A stretch of DNA of 64,000 bases from Candidatus Woesearchaeota archaeon. GTDB taxonomy: Archaea > Nanobdellota > Nanobdellia > Woesearchaeales > ARS49. Below, in pieces: positions 17,993 to 41,300 of this stretch. The position numbers were made by a program, and so were the translations under genes. The stretch spans positions 19,502-83,501 of the forward strand of contig JAWAAW010000003.1 of the NCBI GenBank assembly GCA_038884975.1, written 5' to 3'. How positions within the stretch are numbered: the first letter of the stretch is position 1; each line of letters begins with the position of its first letter. The notes under the pieces are model-generated. The model ran no database searches. It saw only the letters and a program-made list of their open reading frames with translations, and was not told the DNA's origin.

Positions 17993-18006
17993 GTGTATAC
18001 TTGCAG

Positions 18007-22442: not shown

Positions 22443-22466
22443 TAGTTTATAAAGGTTGTGCAGTAA

Positions 22467-25039: not shown

Positions 25040-25132
25040 GTGATTATCTGCCTTTAAGCTCTTTTTATATTTTTGCTTTTAAAATTTCTTATAATAGGCA
25101 AATATTTAAACTTCATATTGCTGCACATTGGT

Positions 25133-27001
25133 ATGAAATTTCGTTTGGCGAATGCAATTTTTTTGTCATTAACTCTTCTTCTATTCCTTGTGTTTCTCAG
25201 CAGCTCTTTTGGCCGGCCAGGATATTTATCAATGTTTGGTGCCAAGGGTGAGCTTAGGCTGTGTTCTGAATATCTGCGCGAGGGGATAATCTTTCGGGAT
25301 CAGCCGTACTGTTGCCAAGGCGGCATAATAACCTATGCATTCGTGCTTGTGCTTCGCATGCTTGCCGGAGGAGCATTCTCAAACATTCTTTATTTCTGCG
25401 TTGTACTGCTGCTCAACCTGCACGCACTTTTTCTGCTTCTTAGGATTATCCAGCACGAGACCGGCAAGACCGAGTATTTTCTCACAGGAATTTTTTACTT
25501 GTTGACAATTTACATTTTTGGCGGCAACATCACCACTTTTTTGACAGCATATTTCAGTATAACTGGTTTTTATGTACTTTGGCACTCAAAGCTAAAGTAT
25601 AGAGATATCTTGGGTCCTGTGCTGTATGCGTGCGCCTTGTTTTCTAAGGCGACAGCAATGCCTGTTGTATCATTTCTTGCAGGTCATATGGTGTTCATGG
25701 CATTTCAGCCGCATATTGAATCAAGAAAAATTGTGTTCAAAAAAGACTGGCGCAGCGCAGGCGTTCGCTTGCTCAGCTTTGGAGTGATTCTTGCACTTGT
25801 GTTCCTGCTATTTCCGGGAAGCTGGGTATATGAATTCGGCAACCAAGGCAGCCGCTTGCAGGAAAGCGTGCAAGTACAGTTACAGCAATTGCTTGACAGC
25901 CTTGTCCTTAATTCAGGAACAATGTTCTTTGGGCTTATTTTCTTGCTTTCTGTCATTGCCTTTTTTTTCCTACGCGATGTGTATTCAGCTGCTACAGTAT
26001 TTTCCATTGCTGTGCTCTTCTGGGTGTTGTTCGGCCAACGCGGGCTTGCGACTGACAATGGATTGATGTTTGCAATAAACCGCATAGACTACTATCTAGC
26101 ATCTTATCCTTTCTTTATTGTAGCTATGGCAAAGCTTAAGCACAAGCTCAATAACAAGATGCAATTGAAGTGGGGTGTTGGAATACTTCTTGCGCTGTTC
26201 TTGGCAACTACAATACAGTTTATTTCGGCTGACAGGGATATTCGTCTGATGGAGGAAAGATTCAAGAGTGCACTCTCGCTGATTCCTCCCCAAGAGGATT
26301 ATGTCTTGACTGAAGACCCCCTTGGAGATATTCTTATTGATAAGTATTATGACCCAAAAGCGAAGATTGATGTCATTCCACATTACAATGTGTGGAAAGA
26401 GGGAGTTCTTCCGGATGGCAATTTTTACCGCAAAATGGATGAACTTGGTGTCACTAATTCAAGCGCATGGATGCTTCCGCAGCCACAGCAAGAATGGAAT
26501 GTATTGTTCAGCAAATTGCTAAATGATACGTATTCGATTATTTTTATCAATGTCCCCCAGAAGATAACATTGATGCGAATGATTCAGAATGCGCCTAATG
26601 TTGCTAACTATTGTGTGGTTTTGCTTCCTGACCTGCAGTTCCATACACACGAAGGCGACGTGGCACTTATACTCTTATTCCAAGACAAAAAACGTTGCGA
26701 ACAAATGATGCCAAAAATCAAACAGTATTATGAAGCTTCTTTTGCTGACATTTGCAAAAGAAGCCCTGTAGTAGCAAACAATATTGTGAGGAATGTTCTT
26801 GGACAAGAGGGAATTACGCTTCCAGAATGCAAGGGAACAGCAGACTCTTTGCTGTTCTTTAACCGCAAAAGCGCAAGATTGAGGCTTTCATCAATCCTGT
26901 TGGCTGCACTGCTTACCTGGATTGTCTGGATTGGTAATATCCCAAGAATGCGTTTTTCCTCACCCGGAGAATCTCACAGAACATCCTCCAAGAATCCCTG
27001 A
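25133..27001 (+). CDS. Large polytopic membrane protein, possible GT-C-like glycosyltransferase
   Basis: About 620 aa, multi-TM with an approximately 250-aa C-terminal soluble domain. The ORF track start (25073) leaves only 33 bp of divergent spacer; M21 (25133) is preferred. Confidence 0.45.
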   Translation: MKFRLANAIFLSLTLLLFLVFLSSSFGRPGYLSMFGAKGELRLCSEYLREGIIFRDQPYCCQGGIITYAFVLVLRMLAGGAFSNILYFCVVLLLNLHALFLLLRIIQHETGKTEYFLTGIFYLLTIYIFGGNITTFLTAYFSITGFYVLWHSKLKYRDILGPVLYACALFSKATAMPVVSFLAGHMVFMAFQPHIESRKIVFKKDWRSAGVRLLSFGVILALVFLLFPGSWVYEFGNQGSRLQESVQVQLQQLLDSLVLNSGTMFFGLIFLLSVIAFFFLRDVYSAATVFSIAVLFWVLFGQRGLATDNGLMFAINRIDYYLASYPFFIVAMAKLKHKLNNKMQLKWGVGILLALFLATTIQFISADRDIRLMEERFKSALSLIPPQEDYVLTEDPLGDILIDKYYDPKAKIDVIPHYNVWKEGVLPDGNFYRKMDELGVTNSSAWMLPQPQQEWNVLFSKLLNDTYSIIFINVPQKITLMRMIQNAPNVANYCVVLLPDLQFHTHEGDVALILLFQDKKRCEQMMPKIKQYYEASFADICKRSPVVANNIVRNVLGQEGITLPECKGTADSLLFFNRKSARLRLSSILLAALLTWIVWIGNIPRMRFSSPGESHRTSSKNP

Positions 27002-27656
27002 AAAAGCGAAGCTTGCTTGCAGGGTCATTAGCCCATTCCACAGGAACCTCCTTTATCCTGTATCCACACTGGTAGGCAATGAACAGAATTTCCGCATCAA
27101 ATGCCCAACGCTCAAGGCGCTGCTTCGAGAAAACATCTTTTGCAACTTTTTTGCTGAACAGCTTAAACCCGCACTGTGTATCCTTGATAGGCAACGCGAG
27201 AAGAACGCGGACAACAAACGGAAATGTTTTGCCTGCAAGCTGGCGGAACTTTGGCTGCTTTATTGTAATCTGAGACTGTGCAAGGTTTCTTGAGCCGATT
27301 ATTATGTCATAATCCTTCATGTACTTCAGGAATTTGTCAAATTCGCGCATTGGGGCTGACATGTCTGCATCAGTGAACAGCAGCCAGTCGCCTTTTGCAC
27401 TCAGCATTCCCTGCCTGACCGAGTAGCCTTTGCCGCGGTTTGGGCCGTGTTCAAGCAGCTTTATGCGTCTGTTGTTCTTCATTGCGGCTTTCACAATATT
27501 TTTTGTTCTGTCCCTGCTACCATCATCAACAACAAGAATTTCATAATCCCAATTCTTACGCTTTAGATAATTTTGAACTTGCTTAAGCGCATTGGGAAGG
27601 CGCTTCTCCTCATTGTATGCCGGAATAACCACCGAGATTTTCATTGCTTCCTCCAC
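26913..27656 (-). CDS. Glycosyltransferase family 2 (dolichyl-phosphate sugar synthase-like)
   Basis: MKISVVIPAYNEEKRLPNAL...ILVVDDGSRDRT. Its 3' end overlaps the convergent gene at 25133..27001 by 89 nt. Confidence 0.85.
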   Translation of the reverse strand: MEEAMKISVVIPAYNEEKRLPNALKQVQNYLKRKNWDYEILVVDDGSRDRTKNIVKAAMKNNRRIKLLEHGPNRGKGYSVRQGMLSAKGDWLLFTDADMSAPMREFDKFLKYMKDYDIIIGSRNLAQSQITIKQPKFRQLAGKTFPFVVRVLLALPIKDTQCGFKLFSKKVAKDVFSKQRLERWAFDAEILFIAYQCGYRIKEVPVEWANDPASKLRFFRDSWRMFCEILRVRKNAFLGYYQSRQSR

Positions 27657-27967
27657 AGCACAACAAGGCCGATGATTCCCAATGCATAGCCGAGCACAGG
27701 CCTGATTGAAGGAATGCCTATCAGGCTTGGGAAATAAAGTATCAGGGCAACAATGCTTGAGCCAAGGAAGAATCCGATAATTATTTTTTCAAGCTCGTGC
27801 AGGTCAGGCATCAGCAAGTGCACCAACGCAACACCGGGCAGTAGCCAGATTCCAGCCAATGTTAGCGTCAGCCTGAGCGCATCGCCTGCAGAGCGCGTGA
27901 AATACATCATTAGCGCCAGAATCAATATGACCGTTCCGAAAATGTATTTCAAGAGCTTCATATGCAC
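27641..27967 (-). CDS. Small 3-4 TM membrane protein (paralogue of 30228..30620)
   Basis: 108 aa and hydrophobic. Shares W..LPG.AL, IIG and ILWRK/ILWWK blocks with 30228..30620. Sits between a GT-C-like gene and a GT2 gene. Confidence 0.5.
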   Translation of the reverse strand: MHMKLLKYIFGTVILILALMMYFTRSAGDALRLTLTLAGIWLLPGVALVHLLMPDLHELEKIIIGFFLGSSIVALILYFPSLIGIPSIRPVLGYALGIIGLVVLWRKQ

Positions 27968-29568
27968 CCCCCCTGATGCGCATTCTTCAGGATAACCATT
28001 TGCGGAGTGTTGTACACGACTGATGCATTCTTGGCAAGCAGGTTTTGCAATATCTGATTGAATACTGCAAGACTTTCCTGCGTTGATGGCCTGAATGCAA
28101 AATAATCAAATGTGCAGATATCACGCGTGTGATCTCCAAGAGCCCCGCGCTTTCTATAATTCAGGAAGCCCTTGCGGTATATGCGTTCATCGGTGTAGCC
28201 GACAATCTGTATGCGCAATGGTGTGTTGTTCTTGTTTGCTATTTGAAGGAGCTGCTCCGCCCCATCCTGCTCCCAGAATGCTGCCTGCGCAGAAACCCTG
28301 TGCGAGGAAGTGCTCTCCAATTGGTTGCAGCCAAAGCAAAGCAGTGTTGCGTTTTCAGGGGTGTTCTGGCGAATCCAGAGAAAGCCTTTGTAAATGTCCT
28401 CTGTATACAATGAGCCGCCCAATCCCTGGACATTACTTGCGGCATATGCCTGTCCAGCAATAACCAATGCGATCATGCAACCAAAAAAGACCTGCTTGCT
28501 TACCGGCACAAAGCGGCGCACAACATTCGCAACACTATATAGACCGATTGCCACAAGTGGATATGCTACTATGAAAAAAATCGGCCTGCCACGTATCGCA
28601 ACATAATACGTCCCAATGCCGAACTTGGCAAGGATGAAGATAATCAGGACATATGCGAAGAAAGCATAATTTAGCAGGCGGTATTCTTTGTTTTTCCAAG
28701 TAACTATCAATGCAATCAGTACAAGCACCCAAAGAACCGGGCTGAGTACGTTTGTAAGGAAGATCTGAGGCTCGTGGCTAGGTGGGCTTAGTTCACCTTT
28801 CTGTATAAATGTGGCGCCCTGATGCCCCTGCAGGTAATTAAAGAATAATGGCGGCAGATATGGAAGGCACATCAGCACAGCTAATGCTCCTGCAACGACA
28901 AGACGCTTCCATCCAACGTTCTTCAACTCAAAGAAAACTAAATATGAACTAACAACCGCTCCTGAAACAATTGCCTCGCTGGCGTGCATGTTAAATTGCG
29001 ACACTAGCGCAAAAACAAGCAACAACGCATTAGGCCATGATGGCTTTTTGATGAGCTCATAAGTGAAGAGGAGTATCATTGGGAAATAAAGGGTTGTAGA
29101 AAATGTTGCATACATCCCAATATTTATTTGATAATGAAAGAATTTCTCCAGTGGGAAAACCAGCAGTCCTGCAGCCAGAAGCCCAAGAATCCTGTTCTGG
29201 AAGACGCGTGAGAACAGCACAAAGAAACACAATGCACTGCCGATTGAAGCAAGCACTGCATTTAAATAAAATACGTCAAAAACTTTTAGTCCTGATGCGC
29301 CAGCAACCATTGCAGCAAGAATCAAGTTTAGTGGAGGTTGAGTGGTAAGAAGGTCTTTCTCGCCAGTAAACCATGGAGGCATAAACTTTACACTGCCAGA
29401 CTCAAGAACATATTCTGCCTCGCTAAGCCTTGAGTTTGGGTCTCCTGCATTTATTGTTACGGGATAATCGTGGACAATTTTTCCTTCATAAGGAGCGTAC
29501 CTTGCAAAAAAACCAATGCAAACTATTGCAATAATCGCAATGATTGTGAATAATTCTTCCCGTTCCAT
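27958..29568 (-). CDS. GT-C-like polytopic membrane protein (paralogue of 30595..32226)
   Basis: 536 aa, multi-TM. The C-terminus (...QMVILKNAHQGGCI) and internal blocks (YKGFLWIRQNTPE) align with the protein at 30595..32226. Confidence 0.55.
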   Translation of the reverse strand: MEREELFTIIAIIAIVCIGFFARYAPYEGKIVHDYPVTINAGDPNSRLSEAEYVLESGSVKFMPPWFTGEKDLLTTQPPLNLILAAMVAGASGLKVFDVFYLNAVLASIGSALCFFVLFSRVFQNRILGLLAAGLLVFPLEKFFHYQINIGMYATFSTTLYFPMILLFTYELIKKPSWPNALLLVFALVSQFNMHASEAIVSGAVVSSYLVFFELKNVGWKRLVVAGALAVLMCLPYLPPLFFNYLQGHQGATFIQKGELSPPSHEPQIFLTNVLSPVLWVLVLIALIVTWKNKEYRLLNYAFFAYVLIIFILAKFGIGTYYVAIRGRPIFFIVAYPLVAIGLYSVANVVRRFVPVSKQVFFGCMIALVIAGQAYAASNVQGLGGSLYTEDIYKGFLWIRQNTPENATLLCFGCNQLESTSSHRVSAQAAFWEQDGAEQLLQIANKNNTPLRIQIVGYTDERIYRKGFLNYRKRGALGDHTRDICTFDYFAFRPSTQESLAVFNQILQNLLAKNASVVYNTPQMVILKNAHQGGCI

Positions 29569-29569
29569 C

Positions 29570-30262
29570 TTAATCCTTAAAACGACATTTTATGAGGCAA
29601 TACAATGCCTTTATTCCATCGCGCCAATTAATTTTTTTGCCCTCATTCCACTTTCTTGGGCAATAAACGATTGGAACTTCAATTATTCTAAAGCCTTTCT
29701 TAAGTATTTTTGCTGTTATTTCAGGCTCTATTTCAAACCTGTTTGCCTTTAAGTTCAGTTTTTGTAAGACTTCCTTCGTGAACATCTTGTAGCAAGTTTC
29801 CATATCACTTACCCACTGGCCATAAAGCAGTGTTGTGACAAGTGAAAGAAACCTGTTACCAACATAATGCGTTGGAATTGCAACTGCCTGATAGCTAAAA
29901 GGCCTTCCCTTGAACCTTGAGCCATAAACCACATTTGCTTTGCCCTCAAGAATTGGCTTAAGCAGTTTTGCAAATTCGTTGGGATCATACTCAAGATCAG
30001 CATCCTGTATCGTGATTATGTCACCTGTTGCGTGCTCAAAACCAGTGCGCAATGCAGCACCCTTCCCCCTGTTTCTCGTATGATACAAAATCCTGACACC
30101 TTTCAGCTTTTGCAGGACGTCTCTTGTTCCATCTGTAGAGAAATCATCAACAATAATTATTTCTTTCTCAACAGGCAGTCTTGCGTCCTGCACGCGCTTC
30201 ACGATTTTGCCGACTGTTTTAACTTCGTTATACACCGGAATGATTATTGTCAGTTTTTTCAC
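29570..30262 (-). CDS. Glycosyltransferase family 2
   Basis: MKKLTIIIPVYNEVKTV...IIVDDFSTDGT. Confidence 0.85.
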   Translation of the reverse strand: MKKLTIIIPVYNEVKTVGKIVKRVQDARLPVEKEIIIVDDFSTDGTRDVLQKLKGVRILYHTRNRGKGAALRTGFEHATGDIITIQDADLEYDPNEFAKLLKPILEGKANVVYGSRFKGRPFSYQAVAIPTHYVGNRFLSLVTTLLYGQWVSDMETCYKMFTKEVLQKLNLKANRFEIEPEITAKILKKGFRIIEVPIVYCPRKWNEGKKINWRDGIKALYCLIKCRFKD

Positions 30263-30620
30263 TTTTCCACCACAGTATTATTCCAATAATTATGCTGAAT
30301 AATGGCAATATAAATCCATGCGTTGCCACGTGCCAGCCGAGCAAACCTGCATAATAACTTGCAAGACCAAACACAGCTGCCTGCACTGACACACCGATTA
30401 TAAACCTTTCCACAAACCCTTGCTTGGAACACAATGACAAAGCATAGCCGGGCAGGACAAACATCCAATAAACACTGGCAGTTGTGCGCAGCAGGGTTAC
30501 GACGGCGGTGTTCTGGAATGCAATAATGAATACAATAACCAGCGCAACATACCCAAGTGCAAGCCATTTCAGTTCTTTTATGATTTCTTTTTTGTCAGGC
30601 AATACACTCACCCCCGACAT
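30228..30620 (-). CDS. Small 4-TM membrane protein (paralogue of 27641..27967)
   Basis: 130 aa with four hydrophobic segments and blocks conserved with 27641..27967. Overlaps both neighbours. Confidence 0.5.
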   Translation of the reverse strand: MSGVSVLPDKKEIIKELKWLALGYVALVIVFIIAFQNTAVVTLLRTTASVYWMFVLPGYALSLCSKQGFVERFIIGVSVQAAVFGLASYYAGLLGWHVATHGFILPLFSIIIGIILWWKSEKTDNNHSGV

Positions 30621-32226
30621 TATTGTTCTTTAGGATAACAATTTGGTCGTTTTGGAATACTGGGGTTGCATTATGATTTATGATAACGCTTCCAAGCTGT
30701 GCAGCAATCTGAACAAGTTGTGGTGCGTATGCGCTCTGGCGGTCAACAACATAATAATCAAAACCGCAAATGTCCATCGGAGCACCAAATATGGTCAAGT
30801 TCTGTTCTTTTCCATAAAATCCAAAGTCAAAAAGGTTTTTGCGGTAAATCAAATACATCTCACTCACCAGGATCGGCTCTGTCTTTATCATACGGCGAAA
30901 TCTTCCTTCCTGAGCCATTGCAACAAAGTCATTCGGGTCCAACAGGAAGACCAATCGCTGAATCAGCCTCAGACTCTGGCTATAGCCGTCGCCATACAAG
31001 AAAAGTATTCTTGACCGTTCAGGGGTGTTTTGCTCAACCCACTTAAAACCTTCCCACTGACCGTCATAAATCATGTCAGGATGCATTGGCATATGGTAAG
31101 AATGTACAAAAAAAGCAGCAATGGCTAAAGCAAGTATTGCGGGGACAATGACACCTCCCTTGTGGAATTGCTTAAGCACAAAATAAACAGCAATGCCGAA
31201 AAAAAGGGCAAGATATATTGGCCATAGGAACCTTGTTTGGAATGCGCGGTAATGCAATCCAATGTAGTTTGAAAGCCCTACAAGGAGCATGAATCCCAGT
31301 GCAAGGAGCGCAGTATGAGGTTCTTTGCGAACAAGAAGCAAGGCAAGCATTGCGCCTATTATTATTGCCCACATTGCAAACATTTTGAAATCATTCAATG
31401 GCGGAACCTGAATTGCGCCGAATTCCTCAGGACTCATTGGCCTTAATGACGTATATGCTTCGCCCGTAATCTTATAGTAACCATTGTAAAATATGATTAA
31501 GTAATTGAAAGAGAGTGCAAGCGCAAGAATTGTGGCAAAACCAAGCTGTTTAAGCCACCATTTCAGCTCTGATTTTGTAAGCTTTTTCAGCAAGAACTTG
31601 ACTGCAAGAAAGAATACTACAAACCCATAAAAAAATATTGCTTCGCTGGTGTGCGTGCTCATCACTGCGCCAATAAGTATCCCTGCAGGAACCCACCAGT
31701 GCTTAAGTTCAGGCCTGCTCATCATAAAGAAGAGCGCGATAAGGAAAAAGCTGCCTCCATAAAGAAGAGCTTCGCCCCACGTATAACCAATGATAAATTT
31801 GTAAACGTAAAGGAACACAAAAAGCGGCGCTGCAAGCATTGCGACAGACTTGTTATAACTTCTTATTAGCCAATAAACAATGAAGGCGCCAAAAATCGCA
31901 CACAATGCCATAATGAGCGATAATGCATCGTGCGCTTTCAAGCCACTAATGTGAGAAAATGCGGCAGTAATATGCATCATTAGTGGCGGATGATACGCTA
32001 TTGAGTCATTAAAGCCTGCAACGCTGTAGAAAGGGTTATAACGGAAGTTTCCTGTCTCAGCAACATGCCGCGTCAGCATCACGTACAAAAACCCATCAGT
32101 TGCGCCAAACTGCACTGGCTTTTCGTGTTTGAGCTGATGCTGAAAAACCTCTCCAGGACCAATGTAAAGAAGGCAGCCAAAAACAATTATCAGGAAAATA
32201 ATCTCAATAAGGTTTTCTCGGTTCAT
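30595..32226 (-). CDS. GT-C-like polytopic membrane protein
   Basis: 543 aa, multi-TM. C-terminal domain ...QIVILKNNNVGGECIA is paralogous to the protein at 27958..29568. Confidence 0.55.
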   Translation of the reverse strand: MNRENLIEIIFLIIVFGCLLYIGPGEVFQHQLKHEKPVQFGATDGFLYVMLTRHVAETGNFRYNPFYSVAGFNDSIAYHPPLMMHITAAFSHISGLKAHDALSLIMALCAIFGAFIVYWLIRSYNKSVAMLAAPLFVFLYVYKFIIGYTWGEALLYGGSFFLIALFFMMSRPELKHWWVPAGILIGAVMSTHTSEAIFFYGFVVFFLAVKFLLKKLTKSELKWWLKQLGFATILALALSFNYLIIFYNGYYKITGEAYTSLRPMSPEEFGAIQVPPLNDFKMFAMWAIIIGAMLALLLVRKEPHTALLALGFMLLVGLSNYIGLHYRAFQTRFLWPIYLALFFGIAVYFVLKQFHKGGVIVPAILALAIAAFFVHSYHMPMHPDMIYDGQWEGFKWVEQNTPERSRILFLYGDGYSQSLRLIQRLVFLLDPNDFVAMAQEGRFRRMIKTEPILVSEMYLIYRKNLFDFGFYGKEQNLTIFGAPMDICGFDYYVVDRQSAYAPQLVQIAAQLGSVIINHNATPVFQNDQIVILKNNNVGGECIA

Positions 32227-33320
32227 TCCACTGCCCTCAAAGCATCATTGACACTAATTCTTTTTATGCATTCGTGATTATCAGGACACTTGATAAGCAT
32301 TCCGTCAATATAGCAGGGCTTTTTGTTTGGATGCTTCCACAGGTACTTGTCTTTTGGTCCTCTTGGAGCAAGCTTTATGGGGTCTGTAGGGCCAAAGATT
32401 GCCGTTACCGGCGTATTTACTGCTGATGCGATGTGCATTAAGCCAGAGTCATTGCAGACAAGGCGCCTGCACCTCTTGATAAGCGCGGCTGTTTTTCTCA
32501 AGGATGTTTTTCCTGTGGCATCAACAGCATTTGGAACTCGCTCTTTTACGATTTCTGCAGCATCAATGTCATCAGGGCCACCAACAAGAAGTATCTGAAA
32601 GCCGCGCTTTGAAAGCCTCTCAGCCAGTTTAGCAAACCTTTCAGCAGGCCATCGCTTGATGTTCAAGGTCATTCCCGGATTTTTTGCACCACCAGGAGCA
32701 ATGGCAATTGTTCTGGCAGGATTGAGTTTGTGCTTCCTGAAAAACATTCTTGCAAACCTTTCCTCATCATTAGTTAGAAATAGCTCAATTTCTTTCTGAC
32801 AAATGCTTTTTGAACCCACAACCCTTGCAATTTCCAGATAGGAATCCACATCGTGCATGCGTTTCCCATAAGGCGCGTTAAGCGTGTTCGGGAAACCCTC
32901 GCCATTGCGGTCAAATCCAATTCTTATTGGAACTTTACAAAGCGTTCCAAACATGTTAGCAAGATAAGAAAAATCAAGAATAATCATCAAGTCATATTTC
33001 TCATTCCTTATCTTTCTGGCAATATTATTTATTGCAATCAGGTTTTTCTTGTAGAAAGGACGCTCATTAAAAGAAATTACCCTGTCAATATGCGGGTTGT
33101 TCTCAAGGACGGGTGCAGACCACTCACCCACCCAATAATCAATCCTTGCCCTTGAAAATCTCTTCCTCAATGCTCTTAGTAGAGGGGTCGTCATTAAGAC
33201 ATCACCGATAGCACCAGTCTTGAAAATGCAGATTTTTCTGACCATGCTAAAATCAGGCATTTTAGCAGGCAAGATTTTCCTTATCCTACTGCCTATTCCA
33301 ACAATTGCGCGCTTTATCAT
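32223..33320 (-). CDS. Glycosyltransferase family 9 (heptosyltransferase-like)
   Basis: ICIFKTGAIGDVLMTTPLLRALRKRFSRARIDY, RWPAERFAKLAERL and NDSGLMHIASAVNTPVTAIFGPTDP are all GT9 signature blocks. Confidence 0.85.
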   Translation of the reverse strand: MIKRAIVGIGSRIRKILPAKMPDFSMVRKICIFKTGAIGDVLMTTPLLRALRKRFSRARIDYWVGEWSAPVLENNPHIDRVISFNERPFYKKNLIAINNIARKIRNEKYDLMIILDFSYLANMFGTLCKVPIRIGFDRNGEGFPNTLNAPYGKRMHDVDSYLEIARVVGSKSICQKEIELFLTNDEERFARMFFRKHKLNPARTIAIAPGGAKNPGMTLNIKRWPAERFAKLAERLSKRGFQILLVGGPDDIDAAEIVKERVPNAVDATGKTSLRKTAALIKRCRRLVCNDSGLMHIASAVNTPVTAIFGPTDPIKLAPRGPKDKYLWKHPNKKPCYIDGMLIKCPDNHECIKRISVNDALRAVE

Positions 33321-34264
33321 TACAATTCCTGCCTTAGCTCTTCTGCGCTTACGCTCGCAGTACCAATCTTGCCAACCTTTATTCCTGCTGCCTGATTTGC
33401 AATGATTGAGGCGTCCTCAAGCGATGCGCCGCTCACAAAAGCCAGAGCAAATGCCGCAAGGAAAGTGTCTCCGGCACCAGTAACATCAAAAACCTGCTTT
33501 GCCTTTGTCGGAATATGAGTAGTGGTCCCCTCTTTGCCAAAAATGCTGACGCCTTTTGCACCACGCGTGATTATCACGTGAGAATTAAGGTCTTGAACAA
33601 GCCTCTTGCCAATTTCCTCAATCTGGTCACCGTTGTGTTCCTCAACACCCACAAGCTCACACGCTTCCTTATTATTCGTCTTAACAACAGTGGCGCCAGC
33701 ATAATTAATCTGCCTCCTTGGCTTGACGTCAACAAATACAGGCACTTTTAGAGCCTCAGCCAGATGAAGGATGTCATTGTACAATTGCTGGGTAATAATC
33801 CCTTTTGCATAGTCAGAAATTATTATCCCATCGCAAGGGGTGTCCTTGATGACGTCAAGAATCTTCTTGCCAGTCTCGTCATCAATCGGGTGCTTGTATT
33901 CATAATCAATACGTGCGAGCTGTTGTTTAATCCCCATTACCCTGATTTTCGTGGTCGTGGGGCGATTATCAAGAATGAGTTGGGAGGCAATCCCGCGCTG
34001 TTCAAGCTCTTTTATCAAGATGTCCTTGTGCATGTCGTCTCCAACCATTCCAACAAGCACTGCCCTGCCTCCAAGCGAGACGATATTGTTCGCAGCATTT
34101 GCGGCACCGCCAGGAGCATAAGTCTCGCTTTGCACTTCAACAACAGGAACAGGCGCTTCTGGAGAAACCCTTGAAACATTCCCCCAAATATACCTGTCAA
34201 GCATGACATCGCCAAGGACAAGAATTGTTTTTTCTTTAAACCGGTCAATTATTGATTTGTCCAT
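33320..34264 (-). CDS. hldA: D-glycero-beta-D-manno-heptose-7-phosphate kinase (HldE domain I / HldA-like, PfkB family)
   Basis: ILVLGDVMLDRYIWGNVSRVSPEAPVPVV almost matches the RfaE domain I signature, and the C-terminus has DVTGAGDTF. Confidence 0.85.
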   Translation of the reverse strand: MDKSIIDRFKEKTILVLGDVMLDRYIWGNVSRVSPEAPVPVVEVQSETYAPGGAANAANNIVSLGGRAVLVGMVGDDMHKDILIKELEQRGIASQLILDNRPTTTKIRVMGIKQQLARIDYEYKHPIDDETGKKILDVIKDTPCDGIIISDYAKGIITQQLYNDILHLAEALKVPVFVDVKPRRQINYAGATVVKTNNKEACELVGVEEHNGDQIEEIGKRLVQDLNSHVIITRGAKGVSIFGKEGTTTHIPTKAKQVFDVTGAGDTFLAAFALAFVSGASLEDASIIANQAAGIKVGKIGTASVSAEELRQEL

Positions 34265-34318
34265 GAGCCCCCGACGGAACGAGCAGGAACTGCTTTAAAA
34301 AACTATCGCGCAACTTGC

Positions 34319-34813
34319 CTATTTCCTTGCTGCAGAATTGTAAATCCTGTTAATGATGTTTGTTGTGGAGTCAGGACGGAATGAGACTATCCTTACTTCC
34401 CCACCGTGCTTTCTTACAATTGGTGTTTCAACCATTTTTTCAGGATCATAATCATCACCCTTCACGTGAACGTGCGGCTTCACCTGCTCAAGAAAAGCGC
34501 GCGGGTCTGTCTCGTTGAAAATAGCAACATAATCAACCATTTCAAGAGCAGCAAGAATCTCAGCACGCTGGTCCTGCGGAAACACAGGCCTTGTCGGACC
34601 CTTCAACTTGCGTGTTGACTCATCAGAATTAATACCAACAAAAAGAACGTCACCTTGCTGCTTGGCGAGCTTGAGAAATCCCACATGACCTATGTGCATC
34701 AAGTCAAAAATGCCATTAGTAGTAACTATTTTCTTACCCTGCTTTTTCAGTTCCTCAGATACTTTTGCAAGTTCTTCCCACGAAATAACTTTTCCCATGC
34801 GCAGAACAAGCAA
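34319..34813 (-). CDS. hldC: D-beta-D-heptose 1-phosphate adenylyltransferase (HldE domain II / HldC-like)
   Basis: KIVTTNGIFDLMHIGHVGFL...VGINSDESTRKLKGPTRPV is the cytidylyltransferase-fold HxGH motif and matches the HldE C-terminal domain. Confidence 0.85.
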   Translation of the reverse strand: MLVLRMGKVISWEELAKVSEELKKQGKKIVTTNGIFDLMHIGHVGFLKLAKQQGDVLFVGINSDESTRKLKGPTRPVFPQDQRAEILAALEMVDYVAIFNETDPRAFLEQVKPHVHVKGDDYDPEKMVETPIVRKHGGEVRIVSFRPDSTTNIINRIYNSAARK

Positions 34814-34845
34814 TTCCCGCTTTAAAAAGCTAATGGATTACTTGT

Positions 34846-35412
34846 TTATTTTGCAAATGCAGAATCAATAAGCTTGCACCAAACGTGAATTATCATGGTG
34901 TGGCATTCCTGAATCCTTGCTGTAATGCCTGAAGGAATAATTATGCAGTCTGGCAAGCACTTCATTTTTCCACCATCCCTGCCGGTGAGACCAATAATTT
35001 CCATTCCCCTGTTTTTTGCAGCATCTATTGCTTTCAGGATGTTTGGAGAGTTTCCTGAAGTGGAGATCGCAACAAGAACATCACCTTTGTTGCCCAATGC
35101 GTCTATCTGCCGTGCAAATACAGAATCAAATCCATAATCATTCCCTCCTGCACTGAGACTGCTCGTGTCTGTTGTCAATGCAATTGCAGGAAGGGCGCGG
35201 CGTTCCTTTTCAAACCTTACAACAAGCTCTGCTGCAAAGTGCTGAGAGTCAGCTGCAGAGCCGCCATTGCCGCACACAAGGATTTTATTGCCATTCTTCA
35301 GGGCAGCTATCAGAACGCTTGCTGTCTTTTCTATGGACGGAACCAGCTTGGCAAGAACTTCCTGCTTCGTACTGATTGAGTCCTGAATTTGTTGCCTAAT
35401 AATGTCTTGCAT
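34846..35412 (-). CDS. gmhA: Phosphoheptose isomerase (sedoheptulose-7-phosphate isomerase, SIS domain)
   Basis: ILVCGNGGSAADSQHFAAEL...ISTSGNSPNILKAIDAAK is collinear with GmhA. The ATG at 35412 (MQDIIRQQ) is the preferred start; the ORF track extends to 35445. Confidence 0.85.
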   Translation of the reverse strand: MQDIIRQQIQDSISTKQEVLAKLVPSIEKTASVLIAALKNGNKILVCGNGGSAADSQHFAAELVVRFEKERRALPAIALTTDTSSLSAGGNDYGFDSVFARQIDALGNKGDVLVAISTSGNSPNILKAIDAAKNRGMEIIGLTGRDGGKMKCLPDCIIIPSGITARIQECHTMIIHVWCKLIDSAFAK

Positions 35413-36511
35413 GCAACAACCTCCTTGCCTTTTGCAATACATCATCCACGCTGATTAATGACATGTGCCTATGACCTTTGCAGTCAGGAATCTGTCCCTT
35501 GTGCACGTTAATGCACGGCCTAGGCAGGACAGGCTTGTAAACAAAATCATTACCAGGACCATAAGGAGCCCAGCGCACAGGCGTGTTTGGACAGTAAAGC
35601 CCAAGCGTGGGAGTTCCCATTGCTGCAGAAATATGCACAGGACCAGAATCATTGCTAATCGTGAGAGCAGCCCGGGAGACCATAGCTGCCTGCTGCTTCA
35701 AATTAAGCTCGTAAGCATCTGATACTGGAGGATGCTTCATTTTACTCGCAACAGCATCAACAAATTCCTTTTCTGAACGACCGCTCATAAGGACAATCTT
35801 AACAAGAAACTCCTTTACAAGGGCGTCTCCCACAGCGGCAAAACGCTCAGGAGCCCAGATTCTTCCGCGTGACGATGCGCCTGCTGCAGGGCAAAGAACC
35901 ACAAACCTGTCGCCTGGCTTGATTCCGCGCTCCTTCAGGAACAGGGCTGCCTTTTTTTTGTCATCAGCACTCACTGCCAGCGGAACAAGACGTTCAGGAA
36001 CGTGAGTCACGCCAAGAGGACCCATAAGGTCAATGTACGTCCTGACCATGTGCTGGTTGTCATTGAAAATAACCCTGTCGGTGTAAAGAAGATGTCTTAT
36101 GCTATGCGAAAATCCGACACGACGCTTTCCAAGCCACCACGCAAGAAGAGCAGACTCGTTCAAGTAAGGCTCTGCATCAACAACAACATCATACCTCCTG
36201 AGCCTTGGAATAAGAGCCAATAATCCTTTTGGTTCTGCGCTCATTATGCTGTCAATGAATTTCAAGCCCTCAAAAACGCTCTTGACGCGGTCCCTGCAAA
36301 GAACATCAATCCTTGCCTTTGGGTATTTTCTCCTGAGCTCCTTAATTGCTGGCAACAAGACAATGCTGTCGCCCAAAGCCCACAGTTTTATTACGAGTAT
36401 TTTTCCTGTCGTGAGCTTTGATTTTGGAAACAGCAATGAAAAAAACCAGATAGGCAGTATTAGGACTGCGCCAATTATACGGTCAATCCAGCGAAGAATT
36501 GCAGTCTTCAT
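35396..36511 (-). CDS. Glycosyltransferase family 9 (heptosyltransferase-like)
   Basis: ILVIKLWALGDSIVLLPAIKELRRKYPKARIDVL and TISNDSGPVHISAAMGTPTLGLY are GT9 blocks. Confidence 0.85.
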   Translation of the reverse strand: MKTAILRWIDRIIGAVLILPIWFFSLLFPKSKLTTGKILVIKLWALGDSIVLLPAIKELRRKYPKARIDVLCRDRVKSVFEGLKFIDSIMSAEPKGLLALIPRLRRYDVVVDAEPYLNESALLAWWLGKRRVGFSHSIRHLLYTDRVIFNDNQHMVRTYIDLMGPLGVTHVPERLVPLAVSADDKKKAALFLKERGIKPGDRFVVLCPAAGASSRGRIWAPERFAAVGDALVKEFLVKIVLMSGRSEKEFVDAVASKMKHPPVSDAYELNLKQQAAMVSRAALTISNDSGPVHISAAMGTPTLGLYCPNTPVRWAPYGPGNDFVYKPVLPRPCINVHKGQIPDCKGHRHMSLISVDDVLQKARRLLHARHY

Positions 36512-36846
36512 TTGCGCCTTGGCAGCCTCACTGCAACCTCCCTAACAAGTTTTGTTATTTCCTGACTCTGCTTTTCCTGATTCACATAAATCCTGAACAC
36601 AAGATAAAAGAGCAGAAGGATGCTGATGTAAACAGCAAGGTCAATCGGCCTGCTAATTCCAAAAAACTTGGAAACAATGTCTGCTGTCTGAGGCAAAAGG
36701 ACAGTAGTAATAACTGCAGCCCAAATTATTGTCCAAAAGCTGAACTCACCAATTGAAATCTCCCTGTCTCTCAAACGGAGAATTGCCCTGCTCCACGCAA
36801 ACAATGCAAAAATCACAACAATGACCTGCAATGGGGTAATATTCAT
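36508..36846 (-). CDS. Small 3-TM membrane protein (DUF2304-like family often found next to GT2 genes)
   Basis: 112 aa, three hydrophobic helices and a basic C-terminal tail. Immediately downstream of a GT2 gene, 4-nt overlap. Confidence 0.45.
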   Translation of the reverse strand: MNITPLQVIVVIFALFAWSRAILRLRDREISIGEFSFWTIIWAAVITTVLLPQTADIVSKFFGISRPIDLAVYISILLLFYLVFRIYVNQEKQSQEITKLVREVAVRLPRRK

Positions 36847-36850
36847 TTTT

Positions 36851-37537
36851 TCACCTCAACAAAAACTTTTTCATAATCATATTGTACAGGATGCGGCATC
36901 CTTCTGCAAAGGAACCATGACCCTTTCTTAATGTTTCTTCTGTGTAGCGGATTACAACAGGAACCTCCTTATACTTGAGATTGTTCCTGCGCACTTCCTC
37001 AACAATTTCTGACGCGTGGGCCATGCGGTCAGAAGTAATCTTGATTTTTTCAGCAGCATTTCTTGAAATTGCTCGGAAGCCATTGTGCGCGTCAGTCATT
37101 TTGACACCATAAAACAACCAAAGAACAAGAACGCCTATTTTGAGAAGAATTTTCCTGACAAAAGGAATACCAGAATCCTTTTTGAGAAACCTTGAACCAA
37201 AAGTAACGTCCACCTCACCACTCACAACAGGCTTTATGACAGCAGGAATGTCCTCAACACGATGCTGACCGTCAGCATCAAAAGTAACAATAACATCCGC
37301 ACCTTGCTCCAGAGCATAATCAATTCCCGTCTTTAATGCAGCTCCCTGTCCCCTGTTGACAATATGTTGCAATACTGTCGCGCCTGCACTCAGAGCAGCA
37401 TCGAATGTTTTGTCTTTGCTGCCATCATCAATAACAACCACGTTCTTGTATCCTGCACTGTGAAGTTCTTTCACTACATCAGAAATAGAATTCTCCTCAT
37501 TATATGCTGCAATCACGATAAAAACATTGTTTCCCAT
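36851..37537 (-). CDS. Glycosyltransferase family 2
   Basis: VFIVIAAYNEENSI...VVVIDDGSKDKT. The ATG at 37537 lies about 28 nt from a TTTATTAA box at 37562-37569. The ORF track starts at a TTG (37543). Confidence 0.85.
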   Translation of the reverse strand: MGNNVFIVIAAYNEENSISDVVKELHSAGYKNVVVIDDGSKDKTFDAALSAGATVLQHIVNRGQGAALKTGIDYALEQGADVIVTFDADGQHRVEDIPAVIKPVVSGEVDVTFGSRFLKKDSGIPFVRKILLKIGVLVLWLFYGVKMTDAHNGFRAISRNAAEKIKITSDRMAHASEIVEEVRRNNLKYKEVPVVIRYTEETLRKGHGSFAEGCRILYNMIMKKFLLR

Positions 37538-37554
37538 TGCCAAAAAAAGAGCAG

Positions 37555-37575
37555 AAGTTGGTTTATTAAGATTGT
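37555..37575 (-). promoter_or_regulatory. Recurrent promoter motif (TTAATCCACAATC-TTAATAAA) for a leaderless GT2 gene
   Basis: The plus strand reads ggtttattaagattgtggattaac. The element is shared with 17975-17992, 22446-22463 and 10721-10745. Confidence 0.4.
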
Positions 37576-37587
37576 GGATTAACAGGA

Positions 37588-38298
37588 CTACTTGAATATT
37601 TTTCTTATTTTGTACGCATACAGGAATGCTATCTGCCTAAGGTAGTCTAAGTTTGTTTTCCATGTCATCTTGCTCTTGTCAAACGCGCGATGGACAAAGA
37701 CATAAGGCACTTCCTTAATTTTGTTGTTATGCTTTCCCCTGACCATAACCTCAAGACCTAACTTGTAACCAATAGTCCTTACTTTGACTCCTTTCAGGAC
37801 TTCTGGCTTAATAAACAAAAAACCACTCATTGTATCCCTAACGTTGGTAAGGGGCTTTGCAAGCAAGCGGGCAACCCAGGAAATAAATCGCCTGTGCAAA
37901 GCCCAGCCCTTGACACCGCCGCCTTTGACAAGCCTGCTTCCAACAGCAACAAGATATCCATCATCAGTAATTGCCCTGACAAGGTCTGGAATAAGCTCAG
38001 GGCTGTGCTGAAGGTCAGCATCAATCCATCCAACAACATCGCCCTTTGAGTGATTGAAGCCGTGAAGCATTGCTGAACTCAATCCGCGTTCATTGGTTCT
38101 GAGAAATACACGTACGTTGTATTTTTTTGAAAGTTTTTTCGCAATTTCATAAGTGCCGTCTGAAGAATTGTCATCAACAACAATGCATTCATAATGCATT
38201 CTTGCCTTTTGCATTGCTTTATCAATTCTGGGAATTAGAAGGGGCAGGTTTCTTGACTCATTATAAGTCGGAATCACAATGGAGACCAGTTTTGCCAT
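37588..38298 (-). CDS. GT2 polyprenyl/dolichyl-phosphate mannose/glucose synthase-like (DPM1-like)
   Basis: LVSIVIPTYNESRNLPLL...CIVVDDNSSDGT...GWIDADLQHSP are classic DPM1/ALG5-like motifs. Confidence 0.85.
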   Translation of the reverse strand: MAKLVSIVIPTYNESRNLPLLIPRIDKAMQKARMHYECIVVDDNSSDGTYEIAKKLSKKYNVRVFLRTNERGLSSAMLHGFNHSKGDVVGWIDADLQHSPELIPDLVRAITDDGYLVAVGSRLVKGGGVKGWALHRRFISWVARLLAKPLTNVRDTMSGFLFIKPEVLKGVKVRTIGYKLGLEVMVRGKHNNKIKEVPYVFVHRAFDKSKMTWKTNLDYLRQIAFLYAYKIRKIFK

Positions 38299-38302
38299 TT
38301 TT

Positions 38303-41300
38303 TTAACTTGATTTTGGCGTCAGCCCTACAAGCCGTATCTTGAACCTCAACGTCTGATTGCCAAGCTTATGCGCCTTTGGATCAAAGCCGTAAGCCGCAT
38401 TGGGAGGAATCTGCACTATTTGTTCCTCACCAGGCTCCATCCCCCTCACAGCAGCGTCAAAACCCTCAATCACCTGTCCAGAACCGATTATGAATCTCAA
38501 CGGCTGGCTAAGTTCATAGTCATCAAACGAACTCTCTATTGTAATGTTGTTTTTCTTCCAGTCCTTTATACTGCTATCAAAAACAGTGCCGTCAAGCAAC
38601 GCGCCAGTGTAGTAAACACTTACTTCATCACCTTCCTGAGCCCCTTTCTTTTTGGTCTCGTTCTTTTTTTCTTCTTCAGCCATTCTTATCGCCTCAAAAC
38701 CGCTGTAAACCTGTGTTGTGTTGCCTGCCCAGTCAACTTTGTAAGTATGTATGCTGCCGCCGGTAATTTCACGTTCGCTCTTGAACTTGATGAAGTGATG
38801 CAAGCCATGCCCCTCAAGGAAATAAAGCCGTGCAAAAATACTTGTCAAAAGTTCAGGACTGCCCATAACGCACTTATAAGTCCCAATGCCGGTCGGGTAA
38901 AGCAGGAACCCAACGCCGGTGTTTGAATTGTTAAGGCTTGTCTTCTTCATTCCACCATCAGCAGTAATGGTTATTGCAACGCTTGGTCTTCCAACACCCT
39001 GGTCAGTCTTGATAACAGCCACGTGTTCAGAAGCATTGTAAATCAAGCCATTAGTGCAACCTATAAGGTCTCCTTGTGTCTGGCAATCCGCTGCCTCGCC
39101 AAGGATTCCAAGCCAAGGGGAAATCCACGTGTTCGCATCACTCTCGCTCGTGATTGCCTGAACGTCAAAATATGCCTGTTCTGCCTGCTCGCGCGTATAA
39201 TTCCACTCATTCATCATAATCTGAACTGCTTCTTCTTGCGGCAAATTCTTCAGCTCCATCCAGAGCTTTGCACGCTCAAAATTCCAGAACCCAAAATGGC
39301 TCCAAACACCAGACTTGCCAATCATGTCACCAGAAGCAATGAAATAATCCTCAGGAGGATCGCAATGAGTAAGCTTGAGTATTTTTTCCTGCTCATTAAT
39401 ATCCTCGCTCGCAAGTATTGCAAGGGCTTCTTTTTTGTCAGCAACAACAAGCCGGTAAAGCAACTTGGCAGACTTCACAGGGTCCTTAAGCTGGGAGTTA
39501 ATAACCTCGAATGCAGAGTTTGAACCGCAATCAAGCATTCTCAAAATCCCAACAGCCTCTGTCTCATCGCTTGTGGCAAGCACGCGACCAATCCAATGAG
39601 CCATTGGAGTATTCTGGGAGGCGCCGTCAAAAGTCACTGCACGGTCAGCCACATACTTGAAATGATGACCAAAATCCCACCACGAATTAATTATTGCATC
39701 AGGCCTTGAGTCCTCTTTTATTGCGGTCAATGTTGACCACCACGCATCATTCATTATAGGGATATCACTTCCACCAGCACTGTACGCCGCCCTTGCTTGA
39801 CCCATCAGTGTGAAAGTTATGAGCGCAATCATTACACCATGCGCTGCAAACTTGTTCAGGTGCAAGTCCTTAATGCTCACCCTGACAGCCCAATCATATG
39901 CTTTACCAAGAGCAATCCCGAAAACAACCGAAAAAGCAGGAGCCATAAGCAAAGTAAATCTTACGCCCTTCAGGCTGGCGTACATTGTTGCAATAATCCA
40001 GAGCGCAAAAAGCGGCGCATACTTAAGGTCAACACTCCATTTGCCCTCTGAGCGTCTGAAAAGAAGCATTGCAATGCCTGCAATGGCAATCCAGAACATT
40101 GCCCAACCACCAACAGAACCAACAACACCATTAATGTCAGTCGGATTAAGTTCTGCAACAGTTGTGTAAACATTGGGCCAAAGAGTTGGGTGTGCTGCTG
40201 CCTTTATGATGACAAAGTGCAAAGGCTGCAACAATGCACCGGTGAACTGCTGGAATTCGGTAAACAACGAGACAAATACGGCAGACGAAGCAAGGTATGT
40301 TATTGATAAGATTGCCCTCTTTTTGATTATTTCCTTAAGCTTGTTCACGTGCTTGTGATTCCTCACGATTTCGCTCGTTACCAGTATTGCGAACGCTGCA
40401 AGGATGAAGTCAAAAACATACCACCAGCCACCCCGCCATGCAAAAGCGTAAAGCCCCATCACAAAACCAGTCATGACAGAAAATCCAATGATTTTCTTTA
40501 TCTCTTCCGCATCAATCATTAGAGTATAGAGCCACGTGATGAGCAGGGGGAAGAAGATGTTATAAGCATCAGTGTCAGCATGCCCCCAGCCAGTCCTGAC
40601 AATTATTGAAGGCAGTATTGCAACAGTCGTTGCAGTAATGATTCCACCAGGAATTCCTGCAAAACGCCTGCCAATAAAGAACGCAGGAACCATTGCGAGC
40701 AAAATAAAAATAATCGGGAAATAAGAAGCAGCCTGCATAAGTGTTATTTTCGGGCTGAAAATCCTGAGAATCCTGTACTGCCACAAGAGCATATAGGGCT
40801 GAAGTTCGCGCCTGAACTCACCACCAAGAGGGGCAACCATATGGTTGTCAATTAGCTTGCCATCCCTTATTTCATCAGCATACTTGCCTTTCTCAAGAAG
40901 GTTTCTTGCATAACGCAAATAAGTGTAAGGGTCAATGTCAGGCATGTACGTGTATTTTTTGCCATCAACATCATACTTCCAAAACTCCTTAATCTGCTGA
41001 TTAACTGCCTTGACCTGCAAGTCAATCTGGGACTTTTGCTGATTGTATATCTTGTTCCATTCCTCATCAATGATTTTTTGCTTCCTCTCATCCGGAAGGT
41101 TTGGGTATTGCTGGTTCAAGGCATCAACCAACTGGTTCTTCAACAATGTTGTGACGTGGCTATTAGCCCACCCCTCTGTCATTGGCAGTTCCTCACTTCT
41201 GAGGCGCATGTACATGCCGCCCCAAGGCATGTAAAAATCCTTGCTGCCAAGCACAATCCTGTTAGGCACGAACTGCATTATCAGAAGCACCCCAAGAATT

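Follow-up and report, generated by a model that had tools for sequence, protein, structure and literature searches.

A GT9 and ADP-heptose gene cassette linked to AglB in a Woesearchaeota archaeon and conserved among DPANN genomes

The inner core of bacterial lipopolysaccharide (LPS), as in Escherichia coli and Burkholderia, is made with GmhA, with either HldE or separate HldA and HldC enzymes, with GmhB and HldD, and with the heptosyltransferases WaaC, WaaF and WaaQ. Here we describe genes of the same enzyme families, with the same catalytic residues, in a 64,000-nt stretch of DNA from Candidatus Woesearchaeota archaeon, a DPANN archaeon (assembly GCA_038884975.1, contig JAWAAW010000003.1, positions 19,502-83,501; hereafter the window). 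They form an ADP-heptose pathway lying between two GT9 glycosyltransferase genes, with a third GT9 gene at a distance, inside a glycosylation array headed by the oligosaccharyltransferase AglB. The split HldA/HldC organisation is that of Burkholderia. In contrast to the LPS system, the host is an archaeon without an outer membrane, the locus carries no lipid A, Kdo (3-deoxy-D-manno-oct-2-ulosonic acid), gmhB or hldD genes, and the genes are interleaved with an array of AglB and dolichol phosphate (Dol-P) type; the acceptor cannot be Kdo2-lipid A.

Heptose is also found on a surface glycoprotein in Aneurinibacillus thermoaerophilus, where the S-layer glycan receives it from GDP-D-glycero-α-D-manno-heptose, made by GmhA, HddA, GmhB and HddC with a GHMP kinase and a guanylyltransferase of the NTP_transferase type. 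That system works without LPS, as we propose for the window, but the window encodes a pfkB kinase (PF00294) instead of a GHMP kinase and a cytidylyltransferase-like HldC (PF01467) instead of an NTP_transferase. These are the enzymes of the ADP-β route, and the GDP-D-glycero-α-D-manno-heptose route (HddA/HddC) was rejected for this locus. In the Agl pathway of Haloferax volcanii, AglJ, AglG, AglI and AglE act on Dol-P, together with AglD, AglR, AglS and AglB, and the genes cluster around aglB. That pathway has in common with the window a Dol-P glycan, a Wzx-like flippase, a Dol-P-sugar synthase with GT-C enzymes working outside the cell, and transfer by AglB; it is not known to involve a GT9 enzyme or heptose, and the window differs further in that its AglB is fused to an FKBP domain.

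An archaeal precedent for heptose in an Asn-linked glycan comes from a different phylum, the N-glycan of Thermoplasma acidophilum (PMC11407970); the review specifies which heptose isomer is present and lists no genes for making it, and no link to GT9 or ADP-heptose has been established there. Tang et al. (Science 2024, as described in PMC11461863 and PMC11573728) found archaeal NDP-heptose enzymes to be functional and, in the case of at least one archaeon, to make ADP-heptose in vitro; the pathway enzymes are the same as in the window, including the monodomain type of nucleotidyltransferase. According to the authors' commentary, the reason for heptose production in archaea 'remains elusive', and neighbouring genes are the recommended place to look (PMC11573728). 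As presented in these two sources, that work drew no connection to GT9 or AglB, and the window HldC differs in lacking the STTR5 arginine tied to CTP/UTP promiscuity. Among bacteria, ADP-heptose synthesis has been noted in some genomes of the candidate phyla radiation (CPR), in the class Paceibacteria (PMC9166423). Archaeal heptose enzymes and the Thermoplasma heptose were thus already known, as were the names under which NCBI holds the window proteins ('lipopolysaccharide heptosyltransferase II', 'bifunctional ADP-heptose synthase'). The new element is that GT9, the heptose pathway and AglB are linked in a conserved way, and we found no earlier description of this link for DPANN or Woesearchaeota in the literature searched, mostly outside subscription journals.

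Gene families were assigned by Pfam and NCBIfam profile scores set against the cutoffs of the models, and solved relatives by sequence matches to the PDB. An open reading frame (ORF) check of the window located all six genes in question, namely three GT9 genes, a kinase, an adenylyltransferase and GmhA, on the minus strand, and E-values of 1e-31 to 1e-102 exclude chance for the family assignments. An earlier note on this DNA, made from the letters, had placed three individual genes, for GmhA, a kinase of HldA type and an adenylyltransferase of HldC type, between two GT9 genes, and a third GT9 gene at 7068..8147; ORFs and profile scores both agree with it. The same arrangement was found by exact-sequence matching in two NCBI metagenome-assembled genomes (MAGs) of Candidatus Woesearchaeota, on contigs of 85,313 and 111,902 bp, and in the Logan assembly of SRR27730030.

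The GT9 gene that we number GT9-1 (32223..33320, minus strand) encodes a WaaF-like heptosyltransferase homologue scoring 130.1 bits on PF01075, whose gathering score is 22, and 164.8 on the heptosyltransferase II model TIGR02195 (cutoff 134.6), although on the E. coli-type model NF008162 it reaches only 111.7 against a cutoff of 569. Its relatives of known structure, by sequence, are 3TOV (121 bits) and E. coli WaaF 1PSW (89 bits). Residues 29-325 align to residues 2-300 of 1PSW, and the protein also aligns to WaaC 2GT1 and to 3TOV, which at the sequence level is an end-to-end GT-B match. On the other side of the pathway genes lies GT9-2 (35396..36511, minus strand; PF01075 107.8 bits), a heptosyltransferase homologue with a hydrophobic N-terminal extension. 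GT9-3 (7068..8147, minus strand; PF01075 118.9 bits) is WaaQ-like and adjoins a Wzx-like flippase gene; its top NCBIfam model is TIGR02201 (139.6 against a cutoff of 170.2) and its best E. coli match is WaaQ (92 bits). Five residues invariant in E. coli WaaC, WaaF and WaaQ (Asp13, Lys192, Asp261, Gly263 and His266) are kept in all three proteins in the alignment, except that Lys192 is replaced by Arg in GT9-2. In WaaC, D13 is the catalytic Asp, and K192, D261, G263 and H266 bind the nucleotide sugar. All three proteins carry an N-terminal extension of 30-37 residues that is absent from WaaC, WaaF and WaaQ, and that of GT9-2 holds an 18-residue hydrophobic stretch; the extension would fit membrane association, although it is no proof of it.

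Two other assignments were considered for these enzymes and rejected. Action on Kdo2-lipid A or LPS core does not suit an archaeal host, and the annotated genes of the window include none for lipid A or Kdo. The second assignment is to autotransporter heptosyltransferases of the TibC/AAH type, with which the GT9 enzymes would heptosylate proteins directly in the cytoplasm, using neither a lipid carrier nor AglB. ADP-heptose-dependent protein O-heptosylation of this kind does exist in bacteria (PMC4358343), but the window yields only 24.2 and 19.4 bits on TIGR04414 against a cutoff of 200, its GT9 proteins match LPS-type GT9 structures from end to end in the alignments, and no autotransporter-like substrate gene lies nearby, so that we regard this explanation as highly improbable.

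The three pathway genes lie between GT9-1 and GT9-2, all on the minus strand. GmhA, the sedoheptulose-7-phosphate isomerase (34846..35412), scores 209.9 on TIGR00441 (cutoff 209.45) and 253.6 on NF010546; against Pseudomonas GmhA (1X92) it scores 205 bits, and the residues of the active site and metal site, QHF..E and Q..H, line up. The stand-alone D-glycero-β-D-manno-heptose-7-phosphate kinase HldA (33320..34264), a pfkB kinase of PF00294, has Burkholderia HldA (4E84) as its top solved relative at 195 bits, with other pfkB kinases at 58 bits or less, and the DVTGAGDT (GAGD) motif is aligned. HldC, the stand-alone heptose-1-phosphate adenylyltransferase of nucleotidyltransferase family PF01467, is closest among solved proteins to Burkholderia HldC (5X9Q, 105 bits) and has the HIGH motif. 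Both fall marginally under their NCBIfam cutoffs, HldA with 340.5 against 345 on TIGR02198 (rfaE_dom_I) and HldC with 180.1 against 181.5 on TIGR02199 (rfaE_dom_II). The earlier note had the hldC gene right but began it at 34813, which is the TTG of the maximal ORF; the NCBI start is the ATG at 34798, giving a protein of 159 aa (34319..34798). In the specificity motif, the window HldC reads FRPD-STT, with position 5 deleted and no Arg, where Burkholderia HldC has FEHDRSTT; relatives from the locus scan described below have K, C, I, F, T or V at this position, and R only in loci L019 and L028. An Arg at position 5 of (F/L)XXGRSTT leads to promiscuity towards CTP and UTP (PMC11573728), and because the window HldC has none, ADP-heptose is predicted to be its main product, with ATP the likely nucleotide. 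Judged from the alignments, the catalytic residues are intact in the pathway enzymes as they are in the GT9 proteins. ADP-heptose is also the donor that we infer for the GT9 enzymes, their genes being interleaved with gmhA, hldC and hldA in an arrangement that is conserved.

Gene packing is operon-like. A co-directional string of fifteen genes extends from aglB (41728) as far as 26913, the spacing between neighbours being -35 to +54 bp, and overlaps of 17 bp join GT9-2 to gmhA, of 1 bp hldA to GT9-1, and of 4 bp GT9-1 to the following GT-C gene. The only real gaps within the cassette lie before hldC and before hldA, and each holds an TTTTTAAA box, 30 nt upstream of hldC and 37 nt upstream of hldA. 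An TTTTTAAG box precedes aglB, and the boxes of aglB, hldC and hldA all stand 30-45 nt upstream of their genes. The octamer is under-represented in the window (9 found against about 19 expected), and three of the nine copies are these boxes, which may be archaeal TATA-like promoter elements.

The array to which the cassette belongs spans 445..41728 (about 42 kb) and contains eight GT2 enzymes, at least five GT-C-like proteins with 9-10 transmembrane segments (PMT/PMT_2, DUF6541), small partner proteins with three transmembrane segments (one of them DUF2304), four short-chain dehydrogenase/reductase (SDR) proteins, three methyltransferases, an AsnB-like amidotransferase, a Wzx-like flippase and AglB itself. 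AglB/STT3 (38303..41728, minus strand; PF02516 111 bits, PF21436) is encoded by the first gene of the co-directional string and has WWDFG at residue 683 and DID near residue 263. Next to it is a GT2 gene (37588..38298, minus strand) whose product matches PF00535 at 128 bits and resembles the catalytic domain of dolichol-phosphate mannose synthase (DPMS; Pyrococcus furiosus 5MLZ, 200 bits); it is a candidate Dol-P-hexose synthase or lipid-priming enzyme. A second small GT2 of the Dol-P-sugar synthase type (36851..37543, minus strand; PF00535 80 bits, 5MLZ 57 bits) is followed by a DUF2304 small membrane protein with three hydrophobic segments (36508..36846, minus strand; PF10066 83.6 bits), the stop codon of which overlaps the GT9-2 start by 4 bp. 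The flippase beside GT9-3, of the Wzx/AglR-like polysaccharide family, has 13 hydrophobic segments (5560..7062, plus strand; PF01943 83.7 bits, PF13440 69.5 bits). With AglB and its WWDFG motif, the DPMS-like GT2, GT-C proteins and the Wzx-like flippase all on one contig, the earlier note's description of an AglB-led Dol-P glycosylation array holds.

At its C-terminus, AglB is fused to an FKBP-type prolyl isomerase domain (PF00254, 73.6 bits). The same fusion occurs in loci L004 (2323-5709), L007 (1162-4650), L009, L014, L017 and L022, which amounts to at least six other DPANN species-level genomes, and we found no earlier description of it in the literature searched, again mostly outside subscription journals. 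Since the C-terminal side of AglB is extracytoplasmic, the fusion may link the oligosaccharyltransferase to catalysed protein folding on the outside of the cell. Before the first transmembrane segment, residues 1-135 of AglB (41324-41728, minus strand) contain four charged repeats of about 20 residues with the consensus DDELSIDFSKIKSWFTKKEH; comparable repeats are confined to its two nearest relatives, L004 and L007.

A scan of one genome per GTDB species with an alignment of GT9-1 relatives gave 80 loci (numbered with the prefix L), and all of their ORFs were searched with the window proteins. The 40 best-matching loci include MAGs of Woesearchaeota, Nanoarchaeia/Nanoarchaeota and Aenigmatarchaeota from many studies. 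Across the archaeal loci, gmhA, hldA or hldC adjoins a GT9 gene in half (20/40), and AglB lies within 10 kb in 12/40, or in 10/25 of those of at least 15 kb; by our estimate, AglB would lie this close by chance in a few percent of cases, given a genome of about 1 Mb and one or two copies of aglB. Loci L004 and L007 have the same order as the window, AglB..GT9-GmhA-HldC-HldA-GT9, followed about 8 kb further by a third GT9 gene, the GT9-3 orthologue, at the equivalent relative position. The order AglB-GT9-pathway-GT9 is found in at least seven DPANN species-level genomes. The GT9-heptose pathway-GT9 cassette is therefore conserved in DPANN and linked to AglB, and its retention down to about 40% identity points to selection on the gene set.

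Within this conserved frame the form of the pathway varies in DPANN and CPR, with HldC+GmhB, HldA+HldC (HldE-like) and GmhA+HldA fusions, an 828-aa HldC-containing protein, or a separate GmhB; variant proteins are encoded in L024 (OZ246410.1) at 18499-20532, L019 at 7313-8362, L023 at 3972-5054, L028 at 7852-8949 and L013 at 2984-5467. The closed 774 kb chromosome OZ246410.1 encodes GmhB within a 438-aa protein and has neither HldA nor HldC close by, which may reflect a different nucleotide-activation route. Nine loci (L003, L008, L014, L018, L024, L029, L047, L055 and L061) bear the title 'uncultured Methanosarcinales archaeon' and have DPANN-like cassettes; these labels are unverified and look like pipeline placeholders.

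The remaining loci come mostly from bacteria without LPS, namely Patescibacteria, Ktedonobacteria/Chloroflexota with four tandem GT9 genes, and Dormiibacterota, with a few diderm bacteria among them. GT9 with ADP-heptose, named in the earlier note as a hallmark of LPS, is not exclusive to it, these nearest bacterial relatives being largely without LPS. In the Ktedonobacteria loci L033, L039, L042-L044 and L046, the four tandem GT9 genes have no heptose-pathway genes within 10 kb. Ktedonobacteria belong to the Chloroflexota and are generally regarded as having no LPS, which makes their genes a further large group annotated as 'LPS heptosyltransferase' that can have no tie to LPS. A Patescibacteria locus, L025, has the sandwich architecture of the window in the order GT9-gmhA-hldA-gmhB-hldC-GT9, and its host, too, is without LPS; it differs in being bacterial, in including gmhB, in having no AglB nearby, and in its pathway proteins, which are only 36-47% identical to those of the window.

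The origin of the genes was examined with a neighbour-joining tree of 145 GT9 sequences and 100 bootstraps. Each window GT9 falls in its own archaeon-dominated orthologue group, to which L004 and L007 contribute one orthologue each, with bootstraps of 96-100 for the inner archaeal clade of GT9-1 and 81 for the 16-member clade of GT9-2; the GT9-3 group is weakly supported. In the same tree, E. coli WaaC, WaaF, WaaQ and WaaU are sister to no window GT9. Pathway proteins are 78-80% identical to those of L004/L007, 40-65% to those of other DPANN, 36-47% to those of CPR and 38-45% to those of E. coli. An unbiased protein search gave Woesearchaeota, Nanoarchaeia, Aenigmatarchaeota and Bathyarchaeota as its named best matches, the highest-ranking named bacteria being about 38% identical in the case of GT9 and about 48% in that of the kinase. 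The upstream GT9 of Patescibacteria locus L025 lies inside the GT9-2 clade (bootstrap 81), and the cassette must on this evidence have crossed the domain boundary at least once, in one direction or the other. The inter-domain transfer proposed in the earlier note is upheld only in a deep sense. A recent bacterial donor is not, given the archaeon-dominated clades, uniform composition, TATA-like boxes and the 78-80% identity within Woesearchaeota; the tree resolves shallow archaeal clades and allows no donor to be named. The families are bacterial in character, and the genes are long established in DPANN genomes.

The same data bear on the explanation that the genes were recently imported from an LPS-producing bacterium, or that the contig is bacterial or chimeric and was misbinned as archaeal. 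The enzyme families are indeed overwhelmingly bacterial, GT9-1 exceeds the LPS heptosyltransferase II cutoff, and named bacterial WaaF-like proteins match at about 38% identity. The contig, however, is archaeal, and the earlier note had named a bacterial contig as what would overturn its reading: besides the NCBI MAG names and the presence of AglB, a topoisomerase I fragment reaches 226 bits with the archaeal TopA model but 131 with its bacterial counterpart, the uracil-DNA glycosylase has its top score on the archaeal family-4 model, and a geranylgeranyl-reductase-family protein is encoded in the window. GC content is flat over the whole array at 0.43-0.47, the arrangement recurs in the two NCBI MAGs and the Logan assembly, the closest homologues (50-87% identical) come from independently assembled Woesearchaeota and Nanoarchaeia MAGs, including the 774 kb closed chromosome, and the E. 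coli enzymes are not sisters of the window GT9 proteins. Recent import or misbinning is largely refuted by these observations and keeps hardly any probability.

We propose that the cytoplasm is the site of ADP-D-glycero-β-D-manno-heptose synthesis, that the GT9 enzymes attach the heptose to a Dol-P-linked glycan and that AglB delivers it to surface proteins, a reading to which we give a probability of about 0.5. Sedoheptulose 7-phosphate would be converted by GmhA, in the cytoplasm, to D-glycero-D-manno-heptose 7-phosphate, which HldA would phosphorylate at C1 to the β-1,7-bisphosphate. A phosphatase encoded outside the locus, either GmhB elsewhere in the genome or another haloacid dehalogenase-type (HAD) enzyme, would remove the 7-phosphate to leave heptose 1-phosphate, from which HldC would form ADP-D-glycero-β-D-manno-heptose. 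At the cytoplasmic membrane face, the three predicted inverting GT-B enzymes of GT9 could then place α-heptose on a Dol-P-linked oligosaccharide begun by the adjacent DPMS-like GT2 enzymes. The glycan would be turned outward by the Wzx/AglR-like flippase and transferred to Asn of surface proteins by the AglB-FKBP oligosaccharyltransferase, while the sets of GT2, small protein and GT-C would add further Dol-P-activated sugars outside the cell. The proposal is drawn from genomic context, and every component belongs to a known family. The suggestion of heptose-bearing N- or surface glycans in the earlier note gains strength from the conserved AglB synteny in other DPANN genomes.

Several observations weigh against this proposal. 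Clustering with aglB marks membership of a glycosylation island and is not proof of heptose in an N-glycan. The TATA-like boxes before hldC and hldA mean that the cassette may be transcribed apart from aglB. GT9-2 and GT9-3 are below all equivalog cutoffs, and the deep nodes of the GT9 tree have bootstraps under 20. The locus scan used a single peptide pattern, IGD[VI][LI]M[TSA]TP, and its taxon sampling is biased. The Ig/NEW3 proteins encoded at 43-49.7 kb, tried as glycan substrates, were rejected, since their 0-0.8 sequons per 100 aa are a density no higher than in cytoplasmic proteins. Two pathway steps are also missing from the locus. A search with E. coli GmhB at E<1, with HMMER filters off, over all ORFs of 40 aa or longer from the window and about 8 kb of left flank gave no match, which agrees with the earlier note's remark that the gmhB step is not visible; beyond the array, that flank encodes UbiA, NFACT, two small EamA-like proteins, SecDF and CTP synthase. 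Equally, none of the four window SDRs reaches the HldD model TIGR02197 (cutoff 274.6). The earlier note was right that no obvious hldD is present, but its four SDR candidates fail: even the best of them (8818..9840, minus strand) is a GalE-type 4-epimerase scoring 136.9 on TIGR01179 and 108.9 on TIGR02197, and 49.9 bits against E. coli HldD compared with 172 bits against UDP-glucose 4-epimerase 4ZRM. With no HldD, the D,D form of the sugar is likely, and we expect that it probably stays D-glycero-D-manno.

As encoded here the pathway is formally incomplete, several other DPANN cassettes having gmhB. It could accordingly be argued that the pathway is truncated or repurposed, so that no ADP-heptose is formed without GmhB, or the nucleotide-heptose has another role, and the GT9 enzymes transfer a different sugar. 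The gene is also absent from the loci of the closest relatives, L004, L005 and L007, and GT9-2, GT9-3, HldA and HldC all score under their models' cutoffs, the last two marginally. GmhB is present in the related loci L016, L017, L019, L023, L024, L055 and L057, which makes the gmhB-less cassette specific to this sub-lineage. Work attributed to Kneidinger et al. in 2002 reportedly found an E. coli gmhB mutant to be only partly defective, so that other phosphatases can substitute. The phosphatase is likewise absent from viral and eukaryotic heptose gene sets that still yield ADP-heptose in assays (PMC11461863). Together with catalytic residues intact in all enzymes and a GT9-pathway-GT9 arrangement conserved down to about 40% identity, this leaves an incomplete or repurposed pathway unlikely.

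A more serious alternative accepts ADP-heptose and GT9 heptosyltransferases but sees their product in another surface glycoconjugate, such as a membrane-anchored lipoglycan, an O-linked glycan or a Wzx-dependent polysaccharide or capsule. In its favour are the Wzx-like flippase beside GT9-3, several PMT/PMT_2-type GT-C proteins in the array, the CPR and Chloroflexota relatives that use GT9 without any AglB, and the archaeal loci themselves, only 12/40 of which have AglB within 10 kb. Three large proteins of 545-642 aa with 7-10 hydrophobic segments and no Pfam match at E<0.1 (3744-5483, minus; 10949-12586, minus; 25073-27001, plus) could be novel GT-C enzymes, polymerases or ligases, and what they are matters for the choice between an N-glycan and a polymer as the product. 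Against this stand the tightly packed gene string that AglB itself heads, the AglB-GT9-pathway-GT9 order in the seven or more DPANN genomes, and the array's lack of any Wzy, O-antigen ligase or chain-length regulator family at E<0.1. We therefore hold a different glycoconjugate to be possible but doubtful, and delivery of heptose to surface proteins by AglB to be the preferred reading.

Other features of the array bear on the wider glycan. Downstream of GT9-1, two sets of a GT-C-like protein, a small membrane protein and a GT2 occupy 26913..32226 (minus strand), recognised by Pfam matches, with 9-10 hydrophobic segments in the GT-C proteins and overlapping gene ends; the genes lie at 30595-32226, 30228-30602 and 29570-30262, and at 27958-29568 (DUF6541), 27641-27961 and 26913-27656, all on the minus strand. 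At least four such repeated sets are present (26913-32226, 36508-38298, 12583-15127 and 17025-24059, minus strand), each combining a GT2 of about 230-320 aa, a small protein with three transmembrane segments and a GT-C-like protein with 9-10. They resemble bacterial GtrB/GtrA/GT-C three-component modules, and their repetition suggests many extracytoplasmic sugar additions. An AsnB-type glutamine amidotransferase within the array (15154-17025, minus strand; TIGR01536 510 bits) may amidate a glycan uronic acid rather than make asparagine. Beyond aglB, at 43076-49706, five plus-strand genes with strong AT skew (about 0.2) encode proteins with immunoglobulin (Ig)-like/NEW3 domains, some with very hydrophobic C-terminal or internal segments; these are probably cell-surface proteins.

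The locus and its relatives supply a gene neighbourhood for the open question of what archaeal heptose is for, and a testable hypothesis, namely that heptose enters dolichol-linked glycans, probably Asn-linked ones. An annotation as 'LPS heptosyltransferase' in archaea, CPR and Chloroflexota should not be taken to mean that LPS is made. Because the enzymes, all small and either soluble or peripheral, are suited to heterologous expression, their biochemistry is within reach despite uncultured hosts. More tentatively, and with odds short of even, we suggest a portable cassette common to DPANN and CPR that in archaea may build a heptose oligosaccharide like that of the LPS inner core on dolichol phosphate, for transfer to surface proteins by AglB-FKBP. 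If this is true, it would give archaeal ADP-heptose its first physiological role, provide the first example of GT9 heptosyltransferases whose acceptor is polyprenol-linked instead of lipid A, and reveal a surface-glycan module that the two groups of ultra-small episymbionts have exchanged.

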